The notes beneath the pieces are model-generated. The model was not told the origin of the DNA. It was given only the letters and a program-made list of their open reading frames with translations, and made no database searches. A stretch of DNA of 64,000 nucleotides from Protoeuglena noctilucae (Eukaryota). How positions within the stretch are numbered: position 1 is the first letter of the stretch; each line of letters starts with the position of its first letter. Both the position numbers and the translations under genes were made by a program. Positions 15,551 to 52,255 of the stretch are shown one piece after another. The stretch lies in assembly GCA_958009085.1 (NCBI GenBank), contig OY253684.1:1-64000 (forward strand). Reading direction: 5' to 3'.

Positions 15551-15750
15551 NNNNNNNNNNNNNNNNNNNNNNNNNNNNNNNNNNNNNNNNNNNNNNNNNN
15601 NNNNNNNNNNNNNNNNNNNNNNNNNNNNNNNNNNNNNNNNNNNNNNNNNNNNNNNNNNNNNNNNNNNNNNNNNNNNNNNNNNNNNNNNNNNNNNNNNNNN
15701 NNNNNNNNNNNNNNNNNNNNNNNNNNNNNNNNNNNNNNNNNNNNNNNNNN
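15551..15750. other. Assembly gap (200 N)
   Basis: Run of n characters. Confidence 1.
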
Positions 15751-35998: not shown

Positions 35999-38775
35999 AT
36001 GGCGGTCAGTAGTACGGCCATCGCAGGCATCGTCGTGGGCATCGGGGTGTTCGCATTGCTGAAAATTTTGATGTACATTATGCTGCGGAAGGTGAGAGTG
36101 GCTGCCGCCTCTCAGGTATTTGACGATATATCTTCGCATTTCCGGCTCGGCGGGGGTCTGCGGGCGTCCCTGCTCCACAGGCCGTCCCAACCTGCAACGC
36201 TCGCAGGTTTTAGGCGAACGCGTGTGGAAAATTGCCGCACAGGACCTGGTGTACGCGACGCCGCGTGTTTTGCTAGGTCACGGCGCTTTCGGCGTGGTTG
36301 TGCTCGCGAAATACAGGTGTGTAATACCCGCGCGCAGCGGGTATGTTGGGCAGGGAGCCGCTAGGTCAAGGGCGCATGCGCTCAGCCTGGGTCGCTGCTG
36401 GTCGTCTGCAGGGGTACGCGGGTGGCAGTCAAGACGCTTCTGGTGGGCAACGAGGTCGGGAGCAACAAGGTGGCGGACGATGGGTTCGCGTCGGCGGTGG
36501 GCAAGGAGGTGAAGAGCGTGGGGACGCGCAGCACGACGACCATGGACAACAACAAGGCCAGCTCCGGGGGCACGGGCAGGGTGGAGAGGAGCATGGACGT
36601 GGAGCTGGGCGGGGGGGCGAAGGAGGGGGTAGCAGCTGAGGCGGTGGAGGCGGCTCATGTGAGCGTGCCGGAGTGGGTGCCGCCGGTGGCTGCAGAGGAG
36701 GCCGAGGACGGGCAGGGGGGCGGCCGTGGGGGTCCCCTGTCGGCACGCAAGAGCACGGTCAAGGTGGGGGCCAGGTCCGATGAGGACGCCAAGTGGGAGG
36801 TGTCCGAGGCAGCACGCGAGAGCCTGGCCGCGCGGGGGGGGTTCAGCAAGGTGCGCGTGACCAAGCGCAGCAACGGGCGCACGCTGGTGACGGTGGACGG
36901 CACGATGCGCCGCGCGAGCCGCCGCCGGGCGCTGCAGGACTTCCGCAAAGAGATCCGCCTGCTGAGCCGTCTGCGGCACCCCAACATCATGACGGTCATG
37001 GGCGCCGTGGTCGAGAAGGCGAGGGACGCGGGGCGGGGCAGGGCATGCCTTCCGAGCGAGCGCAGGTGTGACGAACAGCGCGAGACCCATGCCGTTGCGC
37101 TTTGTCCGCAGGGGCAGCTCCCCAGCTTGGTGATGGAGTTCATGGAGGCGGGGTCCCTGTACCACCTGCTGCACAACCGCTCGGTGCCTGTGGAGCCCCA
37201 CGTGGCGCTGGGCCTGCTCCAGGACGTGGCGTCGGGGATGACATTCCTGCACCTGTCGGGCATCCTGCACAACGACCTCAAATCGCGCAACGTGCTCGTC
37301 GATGCTCGCTTCCGCGCCAAGGTGGCCGACTTCGGCCTGTCAACGCTCCACGCCACGGCGCGCCACGTGGGCACGCCCCTGTGGATGGCGCCGGAGCTGC
37401 TGCGGGGGGAGCCGGCGTCCCCCGCGTCGGACGTCTACTCTTTCGCCATCGTGGCTTGGGAGGTGCTGACGCGGCGGGAGCCCTACGACGAGATGGACCT
37501 GGGGGCGGTGCTAGACGAGGTGGCCAACCCGTACCTGGAGCCGCCCACGCGGCCCTTCCTGCCCAGCATCTTCAACGAGGACATCACCAGCCTCATCCGG
37601 TGACGGAGCTGCCCCTTGCAACGCTCGCTGGCTGCTGGGTACCGAGAGTTCTCTCTTCTGACTGGGAACTGCGCGCCACCTGCGCCCGCAGGGACTGCTG
37701 GCACCGCAAGCCCCACCGCCGGCCCAGCTTCGAGGAGATCCAGTCCCGCCTGGCGCGCATGGATGCCTCGGCCCTCGTCCCGCGCGTGTGGTCCCCTGGC
37801 GCCCTGGCCGCCACCCCCGTGGCTGCCGCCTGGGCCGCGGCTGCCGAGGCCCACGAGAGCAAGGGCGGGGCGTGGGCCAGCGATGACGATGCGGCTGACC
37901 CCAAGGCCAGCGCCAGCGTCAGCTTGGTGCCCAAGCCGGGGGGCCGCCCGACCGCGGCCGAGCACGTGACGGCGGTGGTGGTGGGGCTGTCGGACGCCAC
38001 GCCGGTGCGGCGCCGGGCTTCGGGCCTGGCGAGCCCCGAGGAGGACGGGGCGTGGGCGACGCGGGCGGTCACGGGCCCTGTGGTGACGGCGGCGGCGTCG
38101 CTGCTGAGGCGCGTGGCCGACTCTGCCAGGGACGCGGGGCTGCGTGCCGTGGCGACGGGCGGCGCGGCCTTCGTCGCCGTGGCGGGGCTGCGGGGAGAGC
38201 TCCCCGTGGACCAGGCGCGCGCTGCAGGGACGTTTGCCCTGGAATGCATCCGGTGAGCGACTGACCCGCGGTTCGTTCAGCGTGAGTTCGTTTTCAAACC
38301 TCTCACGACCGCCTCGCTTTGCCCTCGCTCTCCCCCAGAGCCGCCACGGAGCTCGGCTTCGGTGCCAACGACCTCCGCGCCGCGCACGTTCGCGTGGGCA
38401 TCCATGGGGGCCCCGTCTCGGTGGCCGCGACGAGCCTGGGCGGTGCGGCACGCGTGTCCCTCTTCGGCGACACCATGAGCATCGCGGGTGCCATGGAGAA
38501 GGCGGCCCTGCCCGGACGCATCCTGGTGAGGGAATCGTGCGATGTCAGGCTGCGCGACAAGGTCAGGCTGCGCGACAGAGCTGCCGTGTGCTGCGCTCGC
38601 CCCGTCACGCCTGCCGCTCCGCTCCCTCCCTGTGCAGGTGTCGGGCGTGACGGCCCGGCTGATGCGCGCCCCACGGCCCCAGGGCCTGGGGCGTCGCTTG
38701 GAGCGGACGGACGAGGTGGAGGTGGCAGGCAAGGGGGACATCGAGGTCCACTGGCTCCTCGACGAGTCCGCCTGA
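35999..38775 (+). CDS. Single-TM TKL-type protein kinase fused to a degenerate class III nucleotide cyclase domain
   Basis: N-terminal TM; GHGAFG, VAVK, HNDLKSRN, DFG, GTPLWMAPE and SDVYSF; C-terminal VRVGIHGGPV...LFGDTMSIAGAME...GKGDIEVHWL. Confidence 0.88.
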
Positions 38776-39292
38776 CCGCAAAGAGACGTTTCAAACCAAC
38801 AGTTTTTCCTTTTCCGCATCGCCCGCTTTACAGTCGTCTTCCCGCATCGTTTGTGTTCCCAGAATGCGTGCCATGGGTCACATGCATTCAGACTGCCTGG
38901 TAGGAATGTTCTTTTCAGGACTAGGCGCTCGCTCGCACCCCACGCGTCGAGCAGCGCACCCAGACCAGCACGGCGGCCGCGCCAGTGCGTGCCGCATGCA
39001 TGGTTGGCGAGGGCGCAGTGGCAGACGCGACCGCCGCACATCTCGCTAGCATAGCACACCGGGCAGTTGGGTGCAGATCCAGTGCCGTGCTAACCAAGGG
39101 TTGGTAAGCACGCATAGAACAGCGGCTCGTGCCGCAAGGGTTAGGGCTCTGCTTGCTTCACACATACGGGGCACTAGGCGCAGTCATGCCTGTGCAGGCA
39201 GCCCAGCGCTCCTTTTAATACGTGACACCGTGACCCGAGCATTACGCCCGGTTATAAGCATGGTCGTTTCACAACGGTCTCGCATCGCCGCA

Positions 39293-40527
39293 TCACGGTC
39301 CCCTGCTTGGCACGACCTGGGCTTGTGCGCCCGGGTCTGCCACGCCAGCCAGCGACGCCAACACCTCCGCCCCCTCGAAATCTAGCGGCCTGAAGGAACG
39401 GAGAAGCAACTTATCCACCATGCCACGGCTGTGGCCGCTGTCACATCCAGCAGCTCCAATGCGCAGGGAAGAGCGTCTCACCGCGCCCACGCGCGCAGGG
39501 CCTGCACCACATGCTTCCGCCCCTCCGGGTCCGCCAGGTTCCCCGCCACCCACGCCCGCACGCGCCCCTCAGGCACCATCCGCGCCCGCTCCTCCGGCCC
39601 CGCCCGCACGTACGCCCCCGCCGCATCCGTGTCCCCCGCCGCCAACAGCATCGCCACCACTTGGGCCTCGCGCTGCGCCAGGGCTGGGAAGCGCCGCCCC
39701 TCGCACCGCAGCGCCGCCAGCGCCAGGGGACTTCGTTCGTTGCCGACGGGGGCGTGCAGCGCACCTTGCTGCACGTTGTACTGCAGCACTTCATTCAGCA
39801 TGACGCCTCCACTGGCATCCTCAGGCGACAGCGTCGCCCCCACACGCAGGCGCACGCGGGAGAGGCGGAGGAGGTGGTAACCCCCTTCCGTCTCGTGCAT
39901 GCGCTGCAGCTGCGGGGCCGTGAGGTAGGTGACGGCCAACTGAAGTCTGGCGCCCGGGCACCGCTCGAGGGTGGCGGTGACGCTGCCGTACCCCGCAATG
40001 CAGGGGCCGAAGACAGAGTCGAAGTCGTCTAAGACGCTCTGGGGGAGTGGCGAGGGGGGTCACAGTCAAGTCCGAAGAAGTGTTGGCGGAGTCAGGTAGG
40101 CCCGGCTGTGACTGCCTTAGTCTGGCTGAGAGTGGCTGGCGAAAGCACCACGGGCACACGAGCCATCGCACAGGCAGCCAGGCACCTGGACGACGGGGAT
40201 GACGTCAGGGCCCTCATAGAGCGCCGGAGCATACTTGCGCGCGAGGGCAGAGGGACTGGCGTTGCTGCCTATCGCGAGGACAGGAGTGCGGGGCTCGGCT
40301 GCGATGGCTTGCGGATCCATCCCCGCGCCGGCGAGCGCGTCACGCACGGACACGCGCCCCGATCCGTCGGGACGCTGCAGGGCCGCGTCCAACTCGAGCG
40401 CGCCCTTCCACGAGCGCGTGTCAAAGGGCCAGGCGCGGCCAGCGAGAAAGAGGAACGAAGTGTCCTGGAGATCGAAGGGGTAGCCGAGGGCGCGCTCGTA
40501 CTGCTCGTCCGACATCGCGCCCGCCAT
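39293..40527 (-). CDS. Gamma-glutamylcyclotransferase/AIG2-like fold protein, 3 exons
   Basis: RTPVLAIGSNASP (YGSN-like loop), YGSVTATL and QLQRMHETEGGY (LDxxEGY-like). Confidence 0.65.
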
Positions 40528-40888
40528 CCTTGCGCGCCTGGCCAGTGCGCGCCGAGACGGGCGCAGGCGCTGAGCTCGGCGCACAGCGGATGGAGAGGGC
40601 GCAGGGAGACGCAGAGAGCACGACATCGGGGATCTGGTGGACGAGGCGCAACGCAGCGAGGCAAAAGTGCTAGAAGAGTGACAGACAACGTCTCAGCTAG
40701 CGCCAACATCTGCGGTTGTATCCACACTGGCCAAAAAAAAGAAAAAATCGTGTACGGTAAAGCAACCCGTTGAGCGCAGCAGAGGCGAACTGCAGACGCG
40801 CAATTAGGCGGTGCAAGCCAGGCTCCCATTGCTTGTGCGTACTGTACGCGTAAGGTGGCATCGGGGCACGGCATCCGTCAGCAAGCTC

Positions 40889-41633
40889 ATGTCCATCCTC
40901 GCCTTGCTGCGCGCTACGAATCGCGGGCGGGGCCTGGGCTTGCTTCCTGGGGCCGCACGGGTGAGGAGCCCCAGCCGGAGCCCTGCCCTGATGCCCGAGA
41001 TGCGCGCTAAGCGAGCTAACGAGCTAACCAAGAACAGCACGGCTCTCGCAGGCCCTGCAATCGTCCGGTCCAGCCCTCGCGCGGGCTCGGGGGGGCTCCG
41101 AAGACTCCGCGTCGTCCTTGCCGACCGTAATCAACGTGAGCGCTGCGTCGCTGCCCTGGCCGCTCCAATGCATCCGCTTTTCCGTTCATACCGAATGCGC
41201 TGGATGCTTTCCTCCCTCGCCAGGGCAACGAGGTGCTCCCCGACCAGGCGCCCACCCAGCAGGACCCGTGGCTGGCCGTCAGGGACAAGGCGAGCGGCGG
41301 CATCTACTGGTGGAATCCAGGAAACGACCAAGTCACCGCCGTTGGGGACCCCAAGCCCCTTCAGCCCGTGCTCCCTCCAGCCTCGACCCCGGGGCCCTTT
41401 GACGCCTACCGTCAGGCAAGCGAAGGGGACATGACAGGGAGGGTCGGGCCGTGTTGAGGGATCCTCTGCTTATGTTACGTGGACCAGCTCCAGCATCATC
41501 TCGTCAGCGTTCATTCTCCCGCCCCTCGCAGTACCAGGCACAGGCGCCTCTGGGGGACCTCCTGAAGCAGAACCTGGTGATGGGACTGGGCTTCGGTGCT
41601 GCGGTCGCCTTCGTCGCCGCGCTCTTCCGCTGA
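40889..41633 (+). CDS. Small WW/OCRE-like domain protein with presequence-like N-terminus and C-terminal TM, 4 exons
   Basis: DPWLAVRDKASGGIYWWNPGNDQVTAVGDPKP; C-terminal MGLGFGAAVAFVAALFR. Confidence 0.75.
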
Positions 41634-41672
41634 CCGGTGCCCTCGTGGCTCGCTTGCGTCTGCACGCCACCG

Positions 41673-42503
41673 ATGGACGCGCCGTCCGCGTCGCCCCAAC
41701 GACGCACCTCCCGGCCTCCTCCAGCCCCCTGGTGGCCCCCGCGGGGGATGCCCTTCGAGGTCGTCGCCCCGTGCCCGACGCCCCCGCCGCCACGTGACGC
41801 CTATGTGTCGGCACGTGCGAGCGAGCTCCTCAACACTTGCCCTGGGGGACCGTGGGCGCAGGGGTGGCAGGCGTGGCCGGCGGCTGGTTTCCATGCGCCG
41901 TACGGATTTGCTTCGGGGGCATGGGGCCGTGGGGGGCAGTCAGCGTGGCCAGGGCAAGCCGCGTGGGCGTGGCCAGGCGGGATGGGCCACGGGTGGGGCG
42001 GGGCCCAGGGCACGCCCGTAGGAAAGGGCATGCCGGCGAGCAAGGAAAGGCCCGCGAGCAAGGGCGCCGCCCGCACCGCCCGTGGGGGCGACCTGAGGGG
42101 CGAGCGGTCGCGAGAAGCAAAGGGCGGAGGGACTCAGCCGGGGCATGCTGAGAGTGCTTCGCGGGTGCTTTTCTCGGTGACGCGGGAGGAGCTTATGGGG
42201 GAGATGGAGGTGAGGGAGCGACGGCGGGTGTGGTTGGTGCGGCTGCGCGACCGCCCGCCAGGTCGGCGACGATCGATTGCAGGCTGTCGTCGCACCCTGT
42301 TGCAGGGTATGCCGGAGGATTGGGACCCCATGGCTGGTGCCGGGGAGGTCTTGCCGGAGGAGTGGGAGCTGAGTGAGGAGTGGGCGATGCGGTTCGAGGC
42401 GACCGCCAAGCAGCGCGAGAGGCAGCTGGGCAAGGGGCGCGTCCAGGCGCTGCGCAACATCCTGCGCAAGCGACATCAGGAGTCCGGGGAGCCCAGCGCG
42501 TGA
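41673..42503 (+). CDS. Uncharacterised Trp/Gly/Pro-rich protein; C-terminal motif weakly reminiscent of Gemin8
   Basis: ATG at 41673, one in-frame GT-AG intron (~42210-42306), C-terminal EEWELSEEWAMRFEATAKQRER. Confidence 0.55.
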   Translation: MDAPSASPQRRTSRPPPAPWWPPRGMPFEVVAPCPTPPPPRDAYVSARASELLNTCPGGPWAQGWQAWPAAGFHAPYGFASGAWGRGGQSAWPGQAAWAWPGGMGHGWGGAQGTPVGKGMPASKERPASKGAARTARGGDLRGERSREAKGGGTQPGHAESASRVLFSVTREELMGEMEVRERRRVWLVRLRDRPPGRRRSIAGCRRTLLQGMPEDWDPMAGAGEVLPEEWELSEEWAMRFEATAKQRERQLGKGRVQALRNILRKRHQESGEPSA

Positions 42504-42666
42504 CGGTTTGCGGCGCTGCGTCAACCGGCTGACAGCCGGTTCCCCTGTCGGGCTGGCGGACCGGACTTGGGTTAGGGGACGCGATCGCACCTTCTTTGAA
42601 CACAGTCGAGGCCTATCGATTGAAACACCGCCGAGCGAACACCGGCGACCCCGCTCTCGCGACGAC

Positions 42667-45270
42667 ATGCCGCCCTCGATGCTGGGGATTGGCGCCCTGC
42701 TCCTCGCGGGGCTCGGAGTGGGTGAGTTCGAAGCGCAGTTGCACAGTTCAATGCGGTCGAGGATTCGCGGTCTTCAGGGAGGGGGCGGTGGGGAGCGGCC
42801 GTTTTGGGACGCGGCCTCCCAAAGTGGCCCCTCCCGCGCCTCGGCTGCGCACCCATTTGTCTCGATTGGCACCATCGCGATCATGAACAGCGTCCCTCTG
42901 GCTTGCGACGCCCCGAGCGTGACGCGCCGGCAAGACCTGCACCTCACCTCTAGGTCCCGCGGGCGCCTCATCCGCGGGGCTCCACCCCTCGGAGGGCTCC
43001 CGATCGTAGATTGGAGCCATGCTTGATCTCCCGGTCGCTTGGTGCCTTCGATGCGATGATCCTGCGGAGACGAGGTGGCGCTCCAGATGCGGGGCTCTCG
43101 CGCCTGCCATGAGCCGCCGTCCCCTCGTCCGCGCCCGCAGGCTGTCTCGAGCAGGTCGTGTCCATCCAGCAGCCAGGGCAGAACCTCTACGTGGGCCCCG
43201 AAGGTGCGCTTTGGGGGCTCTGCTGTACAAGCGTTTTTGGGCCCACGCCGGGCCACGAGAAGAGGCAGTGCCCGCGCCAGCCGCAGGCGTGTTCGTCGGC
43301 GGGAAGCGCGTCGGCTCGCCGGCCCTGCCCTCCGTGCCCGTGAAGCCGACCAAGACCTCCACCACGTCTTGCATCAGCTCCAACGCGTCCGTGCCGTCCT
43401 TCTCCCTCTACAATGCCTGCCAGGCGCTGACCCTCATCAACAAGGCGAGGCCGCGGCTGGATGGAGCCTGCGCGATGGCCAGTCTCGCGATACGCTCGTC
43501 TCGCAACACGCTGCGACGCGCTGCTTTACCCCCAGGGCGGCTTCAGCTCTGCGGCTGGGAACGACGCGGCTGGGCTCTACTGCAACGTGTGCAACCCCAA
43601 CCTCTCGTCCTCGGACGCCTTATCCATCTCGAGCGCCGCCGGCCACACCGTCACATGCAGCGGCGGCGGTGGCACCAGCATGGTGAGATGAGGCGGGGCG
43701 ACGGGACAGGGCCTGGCGTAGCGAGGGCGATGGCGCAAATACTCGGTGGTTGTTATCCTCGCATCCACCAGAGCCTCGTGTCCCCCCCGGTGCAGGTCAA
43801 CACGTCTTCCGGCGGCGGTGGCGGTGTCACGCAGGTGAACCGCGCCATGCTTCAGGACTTCGGGTACGGCAGCTACGGCGGGGGTGAGGAGGAGGAGGAG
43901 GAGGAGGAGGGCGGCTTCGTGCGCCGCCTGGCCAAGAAGAAGAAGAAGTCCAAGACCGGCCGCCGCATGGAGAGCGTGGACGCGGGCGACGCGGCCGAGG
44001 AGGGGACCTTCGCGCGCCAGCTGGCCAAGAAGAAGAAGTCCAAGCCCCAGCAGCCGCAGCAGTCGAAGCCCACGAACATGCGCCGCATGGAGAGCTTTGA
44101 CACGGGTGAGGGGCAGAGGGGCGCAGATGCGCGTGTGCCACGAGCGGGGGTGGCGGAGGGGGGTAGTGGTATCGCAGGGGCACCCACGGCTGAGGGGGGG
44201 GGGGGGGGGGGGGGGGGGTACCCGGCCCTGGGCATAGGGCCCGTGCTGCCCCCTTCCCGGGGCATGCGATGGCGGAGGGGTGAGTCCTGGCTGGCGTGCG
44301 TTGAGCGTGGTCATAGCACCCTGCAGCTGTGGGCAGTAGCACATCGACATTGGCAAGGGTGGGCATTGTCTCGCATCTCTGTTATCTATTCGCTGTCCTC
44401 GCAGACGGCGACGTGGCGAGTGCGCGCGTCCTGCGGGGCCGCAGGTGTGTCACGAGCGCATCCCTGGCGAGGCACTACATGCTACACGCGGGTCTGTGCA
44501 CGCGTCTTCCTGCAACAGCACACCCCCCCGCTGCTGTGTCTGCGCAGGGACCTGCGGGTGGTGCAGGTCAACAGCCCCGGTCAGTCGGTGCAGGAGTGCA
44601 ACGGCAAGACGGTCGTCACGCCCACCCAGGGATCGGCCGTCAACGTGTGCACCCCCAGCGGCAGCACCAGCACCACGTGAGAGCGGCGCCATAGCTAAGC
44701 GTGCCTCAGCCACGCATGCCTCGCTCGCTGCCACTTGTGCACCCACCCCCGTGTTCCCCGCAGAGCGCGCCGCCTGTCCGACACGCAAGTCAACCAGTCG
44801 TCTGGCAACACGGGCGGCGTGTCCCAGGTCAACGCCTCCCCCAGCGGGTCCCAGGTCAACACCAACCCCAACAACACCCAGGTCAACTCCAGCTCTGGGT
44901 CGTACTCTGGTTCCAGCTCGGCCGTGGGCGTCGGGGACGTCTTTACCACCTGCTCCTACATCCACGAGATGTGGTCCAACAAGTCCTACAGCAGCGGCAA
45001 GTGAGTGGCCGAGGCGACGCTATTGGTGCGCAAGTGTGCTGCCGATGCATGAGCACACTGCCGATGCACGAGCGCACACTTCCAGGCGCTTGATTGGCGA
45101 CGATGCACTTCCTTGGCAGCGATGCAGATGTCATTTGCTCATTCCAATGCTCCATCATTGCCCTCAGGTCGTACGCCAAGAGCCTGTACTGCGAGTTGGG
45201 CTGCGGCAACCTCTGCTCGGCCCAGAAGAACAGCCTGCGTGCTCAAGTGGGCACGCTCATCCAGTGCTGA
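42667..45270 (+). CDS. Secreted modular precursor protein (signal peptide, two Cys modules, QVN repeats, poly-E/poly-K blocks, RxL sites), about 9 exons
   Basis: Phase-consistent splicing from MPPSMLGIGALLLAGLGVGCLEQ to SLYCELGCGNLCSAQKNSLRAQVGTLIQC*; strong C/G third-position bias in exons. Confidence 0.75.
44194..44218 (+). repeat. Poly-G tract (~25 nt) in an intron
   Basis: Homopolymer G run. Confidence 0.9.
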
Positions 45271-45483
45271 GGGACTGTCCCTGACCCACGCATGTTGGTG
45301 CTGGCTGCTACGGAGCGGGTGCGGTGTGCATGTGCGTGCGTGCGCAGGCCTTGAAGGGTGGCGCTTGTGGAACCACAGCGATGCAAGCCAGGCCACGACG
45401 CAGCCAGTCACACGGTCCCACCCCGCCATGCTCAGGGCATGCATGCACCTCCCGCTCTGTGTCCTGGTCAAACGATAATTCAA

Positions 45484-47663
45484 TCATTCGACGTTATCCA
45501 GAAGGGCCCGGCGCAACCGCGGAGGAAGGCCCTCCACCCCCGGCGACCCACGACGCGCCGCCTGCCCCCCTCGCCCGTATCCATTCGCACCCGCACTCCC
45601 CGTTCCACCCCTCGCCGCGTCATTCCTGCCCCCTCGGCCCGCTTCGGCCTCAACCGCCTCCCCCAGCCCACGTTCCGCCCCGCTCCTCGCCCCGCCCACC
45701 TCCCCCGCACCCTCCGCTCCCAACCTCGCCCCATCGCTGCCCATCCCCGTCTCCGATGAAGACGCCCAGGGGTCGTCAGGCACTCGGAACGCAAACCGAT
45801 CCCCCACACCGGGACCCAACCCCTCCCGCGCAGCTGCTGATGCATCTCTGCCTACCGGCGCCACGCCTGCGCCCCCCTGCAGACCCTCTCCCTCCTCCCG
45901 CACCCACAGCACTCCACCTCGCTGCCCTGCGGTCCCCTCCGCCCCCTCCCCACGCGCAGTCGCCTCGTCCCCGTCCCGCACCCATAACACCCCTCCCGCC
46001 CCTCTCGCACTGGCCCCTCCTGGCCCCTCGACCTCACCAGCTGACGCTAACCCCGGCGCCACGGCCTCTCTCGTGGGCAGGGGTGGCGGTGGGGCCTGGG
46101 CCGGTGCATTGTCGGGTCCCGTGCCTATGCCCGCATCGTCACTCGTTGCTGGCGGAGTGCCCCGGGACCTGACGATCGCCGAAAGAGCCTCAGCTGCCGT
46201 GGCCACTCCGTAGGCGAGGAAGGCGGCGACGAGGCCAGGGCTGACTTGCACAAAGAGCCTGGGTGGCAGGGGGGGTGCGGGTGGTGCAGTGACACGACCG
46301 ATCGCAGACATGTCGCGGACACCCACGCGCATGCCCCTGCCTGCATCTCACCGCAGCGCTCTCGCCACACTGGCACCGGCATCCGTGTCCCAGACGCCAC
46401 CCTCCAACTCCGCCACCCACGCATTGGCAGCACGGTACGCGCTCAGCGCGCCACCCAGCACGCCGCCCCCGCCACCCCTCGCATCCGACGCCCGCTTCCC
46501 CTCTCTCTCTCGCCCCTCTCCGACTCCCCCCGCACCGCCCTGCCCCTCCTGCTCCTCTCTCATCCGCCGCACCAAGTCCATGAACGTCAAGCCACCCGGC
46601 TCGTCACCGTCTGCGTCCTTCGCCACCGCATCCGCCGCGGCACCAGAAGGGGGCGGAACGGGCGTTGCGGTGCCTGGAGACACGCCAGGCATCGCAAGGG
46701 CGCTGTTGCCGCCCGACGCGTCACGCGACGGCACCCTGCCCGTGGCTTCTGCTGCCCCGCCGACCCTGTTATCGGCCGGGGCGGGCGGCATGTCCACGCG
46801 CTCCCCCCCCTCGGGTGCAGGGCTGGCCAAGGGCGGGGCCGAGCGCGCACCCACCAAAGCCTGGGGCGCATGGGACGGGGCTTGGCATTTAATGCCGGAA
46901 CTCATGCGCCCCCATACACGACATTGTGTTGAAGATGATATGACTTTAGACTCCGTGTCCCACGCACCCGGGTCAGCTGCTCGAGGGGACCACTGCCCCC
47001 GCCCTGCCCTGCCAGGCCGCCCAGCACCCCCGCCAGACCCCGCGCCGTCCCCCGCTCGTCCGCCGTGAGCATCGCGTCCAGGAGGTCAAGGAGTTCCGAG
47101 TCAGACATCGTCGACAGCCGCTGCGCCACTTCCCTCTGCACAATGGCCTCCTGCACCCAGCGCAATGCGACTCAGTCGCTGAGCGGACTCACACAGGCAT
47201 TACTGGAGTCATACCAAGACAATAGCTGGCATGCGCACCACCGGGAGTGCCCACGCGCAGCCGGCGAAGGGGAGCAAGCCCATGCCGAGTCGCACCGCCC
47301 CACACGCACCAGCCGGGGACGGTCGGCGTTCACCCATGACAGAGCGCCCGCGTGGACGGCGTCCGCTCTCGCTGCCCACACCAGCGACGCCAGGAGAGCC
47401 GCGGCGAGGCCCGCTGAGCACGAAGGACGCGGACGGCCATCCCGGCCGCAGGCCGCGACGCGTCTCTCGGCGACTCGGCCACGGCGTGCGCGAGCTCGGT
47501 CAGCCCCAGACTGCCGGCCGGGACGGTGCGTCGGCGTGAGAGTGCGGCCGAGGAGGACCAAATGCGCCGGCATGGACGGCCCTCGAGAAAGGGCAGCGCG
47601 GTCGTCGTCTCCCCGAGTGCCTGCGTCCGATGGGTTTGGACTAGGCCTGACCAGATCTGCCAT
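45484..47663 (-). CDS. Uncharacterised protein, possibly plastid-targeted, with hydrophobic segments
   Basis: Arg-rich N-terminus followed by hydrophobic LAAALLASLVWAARA; exons WVQEAIVQREVAQRLSTMSDSELLDLL and VSPGLVAAFLAYGVA; ends RRALLDNVE*. Confidence 0.55.
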
Positions 47664-47840
47664 CCGCCTGGGACCGCTGAGGACCTCTGAGGACGCGCCT
47701 GGGAGCTGCCAGTGTCCGGCATGCGCAGGCCGGCAGCCGTGCCAGACAAGGCGGGGAGCTCGGCCCGCCTCGCGGGGGGCCGTGCGGCAAAACTAGCGCG
47801 CAAACACCGTCGCTGCTGGCCTTATGGGCACGTCGCGACG

Positions 47841-48300
47841 ATGGTGGAGCGCGCGTTCGTGATCAAGTGCCTCGTTTTGGCCGCGCTGGGAGCCCTGGGC
47901 CCGGTCCTCGTCGTTGCGGCCTCAGCGCGGGAGGGCTTCGGCAAATGGGCCTTGTACGCGGGCTATGCAGCGCTCAACGTGGGCATGACGGTCGCCACGC
48001 CGTCCGTGCTGGTGGGCGTCGCACCCAGCGCCCCGACCGTCTGTGTCGCTCTTCTATGAGCTCACGCGCCCTTCCCGGTCCCTGCCGCAGAGCTCCGGGC
48101 CCCCGCTGGTGGCCTCGGCCCTCCGCAGCTCCGCGGCCATGGTGCTGCAGGGTGCCTTCGCGTGGCTCTTCTTCGGCCAGGCGCTGTCGGCGCGCTGGGG
48201 GGCGGGGGCCGCGTGCATCGCGGCGGGCACGGCGCTGGTCACCGCGGCGGCCGAAGCGGGCGCGCCGCCCAAGCCCGGTGTGCCTCCCAAGCGCGACTGA
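47841..48300 (+). CDS. TMEM42-like (DMT/EamA-fold) small membrane protein, 2 exons
   Basis: Four hydrophobic helices; LVASALRSSAAMVLQGAFAWLFFGQALSARWGAGAACIAAG resembles the TMEM42 C-terminal half; intron 48012-48090. Confidence 0.7.
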
Positions 48301-48315
48301 CCCCCGCCGCGCGAG

Positions 48316-49439
48316 ACACCGACGCTTGTGTCCCCGCCTACCCCTGGGCCGTGCGCTGCTGGGCGGCCGTGGTCGCGTACGAGGGCACTGACTTTGCGGG
48401 CTTCCAGCTCCAGCTCCAGGCCGGCGACCCCCGCGCGCGCACCGTGCAGGGGGCCCTGGAGGCCGCGGTGGAGCGTGTCACGGGGCAGCCACGCGCGGCG
48501 CAGAGCATGATTGCGGCGGGGCGCACCGACCGCGGCGTGCACGCCCGCGGGCAGCTCGTCTCCTTCCTCACCGGCGTGCGTGGGCGCGGCGGTGCCCCGC
48601 TCGACCCCGACCGCCTCGCACGCGCCCTCAACGGCGTCCTTCCCCCGGACGTCCGCGTCGCCCGCGTCATCGCCGTGCCCCCGGACTTCTCCGCCCACTA
48701 CGCCTGCCTGAGCAAGATCTACGAGTACGACCTCGCCACGGGGCCCTACGTCGACCCGTTCGCCCGCCGGACGTGCGCGGCGTTCCCGGGGCCCTTCGAC
48801 GTCGACAGAGCAAGGGAGGCGTGCCGGGCGCTGGAGGGCGCCCACGACTTCACGCAGCTGTCGACGCGGGCGGCGGACGGCGCCGAGCGCGACCCCCGGC
48901 GCATGGTGCTGAGCTGCACCGTGCAGGCGCTGGCGGGGGGGCACGGGTGCCGCATTCGGGTGCAAGGCGCGGGCTTCCTCTACCGCCAGGTCCGGCACAT
49001 GGTCGGGGCGGTGGCGGCGGTGGCACGCGGGCGCTGCTCCCTCGCAGCACTGCAGGAGCGCCTGGCGGTGGGGGGCCGCGTTCCCAGGGGGGAGCTGCCG
49101 CCGCTGTGGGCCGTCGCGCCGCCGCAAGGGCTGACGCTCAGGCGAGGGCGGGGGCGAGTAGCGGGGGCGCTCTGCAGCGACGCTTTTCGCTCATATGTCG
49201 CCCTCCTCGCACGCAGCGCTGTGGAGGTCCCCGACCCTCTGCCGCTCCCGGAGGATCTGATGTTCCCTGGCCTGCCCCACGCCGAGTCGGGCTTGGTGGA
49301 CGGCGCAGCTGTCCTCGCCATGGACGGAACGCACCTGGAGGACGCCATAGGGGCATACCTGGGTCGCACAGGCTCTGGCACACTTCTAACGGGAGTTTAT
49401 TCGGATTCGCTGCATCCCTTGCCCTCTGAGGTCGCTTGA
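48316..49439 (+). CDS. truA: tRNA pseudouridine synthase TruA family; initiation codon not evident
   Basis: VAYEGTDFAGFQ, RTVQGALE, AGRTDRGVHARGQ (catalytic Asp), GAHDFT, GFLYRQVRHMVG and APPQGLTL. Confidence 0.9.
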
Positions 49440-49557: not shown

Positions 49558-52255
49558 ATGGCACAGTCATTGAAGCACAAGAAGGTCTCGCTACCGGAGC
49601 AGGCGGATGCAGAGGCGCCCCGCAGCAAGGATGGAGCGTCCTCGGCAGGTGCGGCGCGTACACGTCTGGGCTAGGCGTGCCATCATAGCATCGTCAATTG
49701 AGCGGATTAGGGGCAGGAGATGGGATTCGGACGCCATCGTGTCCAGGGTCCTCGGGACACGTTTAGGGTCATTGGGCCCGAGGTTCCTTGAGATTTTCAC
49801 CGCCTCTTGACCCTCAGGATGCTGTCCCCTGGAACCCGAAGACCTTGTATCCCCGGATCTGTGGGCAGCCGGGGAGCGGCCTGCGAGGAGCCGCTGTGGG
49901 AGCCGAAAGAGCGAAGGCCCAGACCCTCGCATCGACTCGCGACGCCTGAGCTTCGGCAGCCGGGCGTCCTTTCGGGCCAACACGCACCCGGAGCTGCGGC
50001 CACCCACGAGGAGGGAGCGCCTGCTCAGCGCCGTCGCGGACAACGCCACCGCGATGCGCGCCCGGCCCGTCATCCCCCTGGCGGCCCTGCTTGCCATGGC
50101 TGCCGTACTGGGCACTATGCTGGCCCTGTTCTCGGTGATCGACTCGAGCGACCGCGCCCGGCAGATGGACTACACCCGCGCCATCGCGCTCCACGCGAAG
50201 GCCGCGGCGGAGACGCAGTCCAAGACGTGGGTACACCCGGCCGCGGCCATCGGTTCGATCATTCAGCTGGACCCGAGCGTGCCCGCCAGCCTGGCACACT
50301 TCGCCGAGGCGGCTCCGCAGGTCCTCAGCAGCCTGGGCATCGACGGAGACGCCTCGACCACGACGCTGCAGTTCGCCCCGGACACGGTCATCGCGGCCGT
50401 GTACCCGCAAACGGCGGCCACAGTGGGGGCCATCGGGTTGGACATGTTCTCCCTGCGTGGTAAGGGCACCCACGCGGCCATCACGGTAGCGATCCAGAGC
50501 GGGCAGTACTACTTCCGTGGGCCACACATGGTCAGCGGGGGAGACGCCGGCGAGGTGGAGCTGGCGGTGCGGTACCCCGTGTTCGTCAACGTGACGTCCG
50601 CCACCATATTGAGCTCGGATGGGTCCCAGGGGTCCACCACGGGGGCGCACTTCTGGGACGTATCGCCTGCTACTGACTCGGCGCCGGCGACGGTGTTCTG
50701 GGGATTCGTGAACGTGTTGCTGGACTGGGACGTGCTGCTCGCGTCCATGGGCCTCGACACGGGGGTGACCAGGCGAGGATGCGGGCTGGCATGGGTGTGT
50801 TGCGTGTGCTCGTGTCGCTGGGCACAGGCAAGAGCGCCCTTGCATCGCAGTGTGGGGTGGCGGCTCGTCAATCCCGCGCACAAAGCGGGTGCGCCCGACA
50901 CGGTCCTGGCCCAGTCGAGCACGCCAGCGACCGGAGTCGTCCAGCGCGTCAGCATCAACGTGAGGCGTGCAATGGTTTGACCTGAAGAGCCGCGTCCCCG
51001 GTTGCTTGACGGTGAATTTGAAGGGAGAGGATCCTCTCGTCTGCTACGCCCACCGCCCACCCCCGCAGCTCCAGCGCGACGCGTGGGTCCTGGAGGTGGG
51101 CCTCACGACGTCGCCCGTGCCGCGATGGATGCCGGCCGCCTGGACCGCGGCAGCTCTGGTGACCCTGGCTGTGGGCGCCCTTACCGTCGTGACGCTGCTC
51201 TCCCACAGACACGTTGCTCTGCTCGAGGCCTTGTTACCCCGCCGGGTCATCGCCGCCCTCTACCGTCGCGACTTCGTGGCTGAGGCACTCCCCGACGTGG
51301 CGGTGCTCTTCGTCGACGTGGTCGAGTAAGTCACGACAGCTACCTATTGAGCCAGCCACAGCGCGGTGCAGTGCGTCGCATGGTGCACGACATATGTCGT
51401 CTTCGGGAAGAGCCTACGAGACCTGTCATCGCCTGACTCGCCGCGCTCCGCAGGTACACGCGCCTCTCGTCCCGCATGGCGCCCATGGAGGTGCTGGCGA
51501 TGCTCAACACCCTCTACGACACCTTCGACGAACTCTGCAGCGGCTTCGCGCTCGTACGCAAGCTTGACATCATCGTGAGCGAGCTGCGGGGGCTTGCAGC
51601 CACTTGCACGCCGGCAGCGATGGCTGTCGGCTTTACTGCCCCATGCTGCGCGAAGCAGGCACAGAGCAAACGCCTGCTTTCCGTCGCAGGGGGATGCGTA
51701 CATTGCGGTCAGCGGTGCGGAGCCTGGCAGCGACCCGGTGGCGTCGGCCGAGCAGCTGGCGCGGCTGGCGCTGGCGATCGTGGCTGCGGTGGATGCTCAC
51801 CCCTACGTGCACCGGGAGAGGCTGCAAGTGCGCGTGGGCCTGCACGCGGGCCCGGTGGTGGCCGGGGTCGTGGGAGCCCGCAAGCCGAAATGGACCTTAC
51901 TGGGCGATACCATGAACACGGGTACGTGCTTGGTCGATGCAAGAAAGTAGGCTTAGTGATTTACCAGTGCTCTGACGCGGCCATCTCGGCTGCACGCGAC
52001 ACGTGCCCCATTGTGACAGCGACACACCCGCTGCCGCCCGCAGGCAGCCGCATGGAGAGCACGGGGGAGCCCGGGCGCGTGCACTGCTCGGAGGCTTTCC
52101 GGGATCGGCTGGCGGGGAGGACCGTCGACCTGCGCTTCGACCTGCGCGGCCACAGCGTGTTCGTCAAGGGCAAGGGCGCCATGACGACCTACTGGCTCAC
52201 GCGCGCCCCCGCCATCTCCGCCAGCGTCACCTCGGCCACGGTGCAGGAGGTATGA
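49558..52255 (+). CDS. TM-CHASE-TM class III adenylate/guanylate cyclase
   Basis: CHASE motifs LQFAPDTVIAAVYP, AIGLDMF, GPH, RYPVF and FWGFV; cyclase motifs LFVDVVEYT, IGDAY, VRVGLHAGPV, GDTMNTGSRMES and VKGKG. Confidence 0.9.

Follow-up and report, generated by a model that had tools for sequence, protein, structure and literature searches.

Several groups of secreted proteins carry short motifs of the RxL type; they are described here from excerpts of the cited papers. The precursors of the diatom silaffin Sil1p and of the silacidins consist of a signal peptide and repeats delimited by RXL-type motifs, and Lys clusters or acidic peptides are predicted to remain after processing (PMC4557024). 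The basic and acidic peptides come from separate precursors. They are Ser-rich and phosphorylated, and the lysines of silaffins carry polyamines. In 2017, RXL sites were said to have been found only in biosilica proteins so far (excerpt of PMC5647440).

Related motifs are found elsewhere. Sorghum Siliplant1 (Slp1) is a secreted protein of the green lineage that precipitates silica and combines RXL sites with positive and negative blocks (bioRxiv 10.1101/518332). It is rich in Pro, Lys and His, has seven repeats with three RXL sites at repeat ends, and yields pieces that stay zwitterionic. In plants, the site-1 protease motif RxLx/RxxL occurs in secreted precursors such as RALF23, CLEL6 and the PROSCOOPs, and substrates are cut after R or L; in those listed in the excerpt, a single peptide follows one or two sites (PMC13082318). 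In PEXEL and oomycete RXLR proteins, cleavage follows the Leu of RxL (PMC11754927), and a single motif, no further than about 40 residues from the signal peptide, serves effector export. As the examples from plants, oomycetes and Plasmodium show, the motif is general, and it does not point to silica.

A different kind of likeness is offered by the volvocine pherophorins. These have two homologous globular end domains joined by a low-complexity linker, a hydroxyproline rod, and are cleaved into stable domains (PMC6313938).

The window analysed here is a stretch of 64,000 nucleotides from one contig of Protoeuglena noctilucae. One of its genes (positions 42667-45270, forward strand) shares features with each of these systems. 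It encodes 413 amino acids in one open frame of nine exons, with a GC3 of 0.92 and a TGA stop codon at 45268-45270. Seven of its introns are GT-AG and one is GC-AG, and their lengths are 83-419 nt. The locus is real as a non-random secreted precursor with predicted processing at multiple sites. It is undescribed in the literature searched (which included few subscription papers), where neither this family nor an alternating-charge RxL precursor from a green alga was found.

Exon 1 (42667-42721) holds the start codon and the hydrophobic core of the signal peptide (residues 1-18) and is followed by a phase-1 intron. Exon 2 (43141-43203) contains the probable mature N-terminus and a QVVS motif. 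An N-terminal Cys domain is divided between exon 3 (43287-43444; C68 and C84), which ends at the GC donor of the GC-AG intron after the residues LINK, and exon 4 (43536-43682; C108, C111 and C133). Exon 5 (43796-44105) begins with a Ser/Gly and QVN lead-in and then encodes the bulk of a charged cassette. Exon 6 (44405-44444) is 40 nt long, and the frame depends on it. Exon 7 (44548-44676) includes a QVN module that contains a pair of cysteines (C275 and C292). Exon 8 (44764-45000) encodes (T/S)QVN repeats and then C364, the first Cys of a C-terminal domain, and exon 9 (45168-45270) the rest of that domain (C388, C392, C396 and C413) and the stop codon.

The N-terminus is signal-peptide-like, as judged by hydropathy and by conservation in a paralogue. 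KD19 hydropathy peaks at 1.85 at residue 3 and nowhere exceeds 0.75 beyond residue 30; it indicates no later transmembrane or hydrophobic segment. There are eight N-glycosylation sequons.

The only true paralogue lies at C12:729045-731275 on the reverse strand and was located by searches with both exon 3 and exon 9. Its model has 464 amino acids, with 26% identity to the target (blastp E=2e-27, filters off). It retains the signal peptide, the QVVS motif and all ten domain cysteines, five in each domain. Its first intron follows the signal peptide in the same layout, and its first and second introns are both phase 1. Further introns match the target in codon and phase, one after LINK and one, the last of the paralogue and intron 8 of the target, eight codons before the YC of the C-terminal domain. 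It is mainly this conservation of signal peptide, cysteines and intron positions that makes the gene model credible.

Confirmation of the exons, which the sequence-only reading had proposed to seek in RNA, was not obtained. In the four runs, of 11 listed, that were aligned to 39200-48400, none of the eight introns was recovered as a joint, which is no proof of silence. Two runs from the same species gave almost no signal. Two marine metatranscriptomes from one study contain near-identical contigs of both neighbouring genes, with six joints. Between 42884 and 45339 they have no joint and no listed contig, with bin depths of 0 to 1.3, and one contig extends to 42705. The upstream neighbour (40711-42633, forward strand) has a weak WW match and is spliced in a marine metatranscriptome. 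Its metatranscriptome contig stops 34 nt before the ATG of the target.

Residues 157-305 contain eight RxL or RxM motifs, starting at residues 157, 184, 197, 215, 237, 252, 257 and 303. These are RAML, of the RxxL type (43841-43852), RRL (43922-43930), RRM (43961-43969), RQL (44015-44023), RRM (44081-44089), RVL in exon 6 (44425-44433), RRDL (residues 257-260) and RRL in exon 8 (44768-44776), all present in the order in which the sequence-only reading had named them. Seven lie within one exon each; RRDL, the seventh, begins in exon 6, straddles intron 6 and ends in exon 7.

Counted by a definition allowing L or M that was set after the sequence had been seen, the eight motifs compare with 1.12 expected, and none of 100,000 composition shuffles reaches eight. 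Five are strict RxL (p=0.0009 in composition shuffles). A motif begins at 8 of the 17 arginines of the target. In 18 control stretches of the window that look like coding sequence, 28 of 235 arginines begin one (binomial p=0.0004). In all, 15 of the 17 arginines of the target lie in or directly beside the motifs, a placement that would be superfluous in a merely charged linker. Across the genome, the pattern RRLLQ is not enriched (36 matches, 29 in the control), and 30 of the 36 were inspected. Only one of these appears to have a secreted-type context: at C15:586617, RRLLQ precedes a Val-rich strand, as is seen in algal secreted proteins.

Between the motifs lie five middle segments, the first, third and fifth acidic and the second and fourth basic, with the switch falling at the motifs. 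The first acidic segment (43853-43921; 23 aa) has Tyr and Gly followed by eight Glu, with nine Asp plus Glu. The first basic segment (43931-43960) has six Lys in 10 aa, and its terminal Gly precedes RR. The second acidic segment (43970-44014) has five Asp plus Glu in 15 aa. The second basic segment (44024-44080; 19 aa) also has six Lys, with a Pro/Gln spacer, and the third acidic segment (44090-44424; 12 aa, four Asp plus Glu) is interrupted by intron 5. Ser is scarce throughout, with 1, 1 and 2 residues in the acidic segments and 1 and 2 in the basic ones. The degree to which the four internal sites separate charge is equalled in only 0.2% of 100,000 random four-cut placements. Over residues 161-254 the cassette has a net charge of +2.

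The acidic, basic and QVN blocks quoted earlier are thus all found in the 413-residue frame, and the earlier proposal of a secreted precursor with RxL-type sites holds, given their excess over shuffles, their position on charge switches and the hydropathy of the N-terminus. The duplicated FxRxLAK4-5SK...RRMES unit that it described is visible in the DNA as 60-nt copies 93 nt apart and 77% identical. A pattern search of the genome for RxL followed by KKK had five matches. Two come from the target gene and three are unrelated, so that no second secreted gene of this kind was found.

A search for paralogues with the same grammar had been suggested. After its N-terminal domain the paralogue has RRL and RQL, the latter aligned to RQL of the target; then come QANV repeats and a tail rich in Gly, Tyr and Pro. 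It has no lysine or glutamate blocks, with four Lys and four Glu in 464 residues. Its two RxL motifs are not in excess (0.94 expected, p=0.24), which counts against the best explanation given below. Since the charge blocks are absent while the domains are kept, the conserved core consists of the Cys domains and the repeats.

The two Cys domains, which the earlier description omitted, are this conserved part of the family. Each contains five cysteines in about 50-65 residues, C68-C133 at one end and C364-C413 at the other. Profile comparison indicates homology between them. With a profile built from the N domains, the C domains reach 18.3 and 14.2 bits, which none of 996 and 960 scored shuffles exceeds (their maxima are 9.8 and 10.3); hhalign of the N against the C domain gives E=0.0012 with a probability of only 19%. 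Four cysteines align between the two. The extra ones are C68 and C396, both of which are kept in the paralogue.

The (T/S)QVN repeats of exon 8 occupy 44777-44917 with a spacing of 9-12 residues. AlphaFold2 of exon 8 alone gives a mean pLDDT of 55 and only a C-terminal helix, and so lends a beta-solenoid no support. The genome contains 49 (T/S)QVN matches (37 in the control). Ten of these lie in clusters, found only on contig C1 and on the target contig (C17), one belongs to a gene on contig C18, and 38 are singletons with no family context.

The C1 gene (C1:2089151-2091930, reverse strand) encodes a protein of 538 amino acids with a signal peptide and with RRL at residue 39. The protein has 16 Cys, many SQVN repeats and recurring hairpin-like Cys/Asn-Gly units; the gene model has two GC-AG introns. 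The C18 gene (C18:883539-884061, reverse strand) is a short, partial model of secreted type with a signal peptide, QVN modules and RDL at residue 43, and its first intron also has a GC donor. Seven stretches of these two genes gave nothing above the curated cut-off in Pfam. Common ancestry with the target is not established, because they share with it only the QVN modules by which they were selected, a signal peptide and an RxL site.

Outside this genome no homologue was found, and the family may be lineage-restricted, a view held as part of the tentative best explanation given below. The queries were exon pieces and one unspliced frame, so the negative results are weaker than they look. With the unspliced frame, which covers exons 3, 5 and 7, the single match among 8000 scored was the frame itself, one exon of the paralogue found none of 270 longer proteins, and the ESM Atlas gave no usable match. 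A 33-position profile run against 1.84 billion representatives had four matches. Two are from the same genome, and the other two, driven by repeats over 10-12 positions, were rejected. One metagenome scan gave 0 of 589; the 4 of 172 in a second are matches of 13-16 residues in DNA of 28-32% GC and were taken as chance. Within the genome, three weak matches to exon 5 were set aside as low-complexity chance, and a LINK pattern search added a single, unrelated match.

How does this protein compare with the described systems? Like the silaffin and silacidin precursors, it has an N-terminal signal peptide, by hydropathy and by the paralogue, and repeat units that end in RXL-type motifs. Unlike them, it alternates acidic and basic segments in one chain, has one or two Ser in each segment, carries two flanking Cys domains and shows no sequence homology that could be found. 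In place of the Ser-rich KXXK of silaffins, KxxK occurs only trivially inside Lys runs and K-(S/G)2-K not at all, and the basic unit has two copies where Sil1p has seven. In place of the repetitive Ser-rich Asp/Glu peptides of silacidins there are three unlike acidic segments. By these compositional tests, the protein is neither a silaffin nor a silacidin, and the likeness is one of layout only.

Slp1 is likewise of the green lineage and has both charges. Its sites lie so that the pieces keep both, whereas those of the target separate them, and the target has Cys domains and QVN repeats in addition. With 2 His and 18 Pro in 413 residues, the target also lacks the Pro/Lys/Glu-rich and His/Asp-rich repeats of Siliplant1. 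The precedent of Slp1 keeps a mineral reading alive, and it makes the locus less than categorically new.

In contrast to the listed site-1 protease substrates, the target has eight sites and neither YISY nor another known peptide motif. Its last site, RRL-S-D, fits the RxLxE/D/Q form of PEXEL, yet its motifs are many and internal and its host is a free-living alga. The pherophorin-like plan is filled differently as well. Pfam searches with six of the nine exons (3, 4, 5, 7, 8 and 9) matched no family, including no pherophorin domain, and the linker is rich in Ser, Gly, Asn, Gln and charge rather than a hydroxyproline rod.

The genome (26.3 Mb in 27 contigs; the window has about 68% GC) contains genes for the chlorophyll a/b proteins LHCII and CP26. 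The top non-polyprotein entries in searches with these are presumably from Chlamydomonas. Together with the flagellar gene IFT46, a 101-kb plastid contig and the near-identical contigs in the two marine metatranscriptomes, they mark the host as a flagellated marine green alga.

An orthologue of site-1 protease (SKI-1/SBT6.1) is present at C4:404210-405191, with E=1.7e-39 to PDB 8uwc. It is one of 23 subtilase matches in the genome, another being tripeptidyl-peptidase 2. The earlier comparison with the plant enzyme is supported by this orthologue and by the six of eight sites that fit RxLx/RxxL. The two RRM sites do not fit, and they also fall outside the human motif R-X-(L/I/V)-(L/K) (PMC12067269). 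Nor is the P1 preference of the human enzyme borne out: the residues after the five strict RxL sites are A, A, R, R and S, none of them L or K. Given this poor fit, another protease that cuts after Leu, as for PEXEL and RXLR, is possible. Convertase-like sites as such are common, occurring in 756 of 771 soluble secreted Chlamydomonas proteins (PMC6313938).

The best explanation, held tentatively and at slightly less than even confidence, is that the protein is the secreted precursor of a small, lineage-restricted extracellular-matrix family, of a cell covering or an adhesive, and that the charged cassette is an excisable pro-segment. The precursor would enter the ER, where disulfides would form, and its cleavage at several RxL sites would follow in the Golgi, with the site-1 protease of the alga as the most likely enzyme. 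Nearly balanced in charge and thus self-neutralising, the cassette may keep the precursor soluble until it is excised. Its removal would free the Cys domains and QVN repeats, the conserved working parts, for assembly outside the cell. As each domain has a core of four cysteines and one extra Cys that the paralogue keeps, the N and C domains are predicted to stay linked through C68-C396 as a two-chain product. Because the family keeps its Cys domains and repeats and not its charges, the cassette is taken for a pro-segment and the product for a structural protein outside the cell.

The main rival reading, though rather unlikely, is that the released peptides are themselves working products in an organic covering. 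Lys-rich peptides could condense anionic polysaccharide or form complexes with the acidic peptides, with no mineral involved. The strict alternation and the cuts on charge boundaries speak for this, and five separate cuts and a duplicated unit, not obviously needed by a mere spacer, fit functional peptides better than they fit a pro-segment. There are precedents for the chemistry. RALF4, of a peptide family processed by site-1 protease, condenses wall pectin together with LRX8 in plants (PMC12605736), and the scales and thecae of chlorophytes are made of 2-keto sugar acids (PMC10762512). The peptides are, however, short, with six Lys each in the basic ones and 4-9 acidic residues in the others. 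Polyions as short as these complex weakly at the salt concentration of seawater. The absence of the cassette from the paralogue and of a second gene with RxL followed by KKK also weighs against working peptides of this kind.

Alternatively, the gene may encode a multi-peptide precursor for signalling or defence, such as a pheromone, a hormone-like peptide or a cationic antimicrobial, with basic peptides or Cys domains as the signals and acidic blocks that neutralise. Acidic spacers are familiar from the precursors of cationic peptides. Typical marks of a peptide precursor are its signal peptide, sites of paired basic residues and similar peptides that recur (PMC6313938), and two of the eight sites read Gly-Arg-Arg, a potential amidation signal. 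Exon-wise searches of the genome, run with no positive control, gave no match to the PAM-type monooxygenase domains PF01082 and PF03712. The long repeat linker and Gly/Tyr-rich tail of the paralogue and the repeat-rich C1 protein look structural, and the signalling reading is judged unlikely.

Also unlikely is a broader proposal that combines several of these elements. Released peptides that alternate strictly between polyanion and polycation, QVN modules and a two-chain head joined by disulfides might together organise the covering by charge complexation and possibly template mineral, so that the logic of silaffins and silacidins would have been reached independently in a green flagellate.

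That the protein remains uncut as an intact polyampholyte, that it is nuclear with its Lys runs as localisation signals, or that the gene model is wrong is very unlikely. The Lys runs do resemble nuclear signals, exon 6 is short, and no joint was seen in RNA. Against this stand the canonical splice sites, the high GC3, the features shared with the paralogue and the arginines gathered at the motifs.

Least probable of all is the suggestion of the sequence-only reading, convergence on a combined silaffin and silacidin precursor from which polycations and polyanions are released to template silica or carbonate: the layout is shared and Slp1 is a precedent in the green lineage, but the motif is general, the segments are poor in Ser, the paralogue has no charged blocks, no SIT silicon transporter family was matched in an exon-wise search of the genome (absence not being proven by this), and the excerpt of a 2023 review of green-algal matrices contains neither 'silica' nor 'calcif' (PMC10762512). 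Si has been noted in the walls of some chlorophytes (PMC7709012). Precipitation of silica in vitro is not a specific property, since poly-lysine brings it about generically (PMC4557024).

The locus may be useful in several ways. The family that it represents is undescribed and has a new small Cys domain, and little is known of the covering proteins of small marine green flagellates. Its predicted processing code is unusually clean, with eight sites and a flip of charge at each internal one, and precise predictions follow from it, namely the exact neo-N-termini and a two-chain disulfide product. The RxL-reading protease is called unknown in the available parts of the diatom papers (PMC5647440; bioRxiv 10.1101/518332), and the target is a natural multi-site candidate substrate for finding which algal protease reads RxL. 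If the charged peptides do act after release, the gene would open a route, outside diatoms, to polyelectrolyte materials from a single gene.

Other features of the window and genome were noted in passing. Positions 1-150 of the window are a telomere array of CCCTAA repeats, and a run of N occupies 15551-15750. A gene at 36385-38772 is presumably protein-kinase-like and cyclase-like, and one at 50102-52252 presumably a second cyclase-like gene, their translations having been judged by eye. The mitochondrial contig (C26, 45 kb) has a long, interrupted cox1-like frame in which Arg stands at some conserved positions when the standard code is used; it may contain introns or use a variant code.
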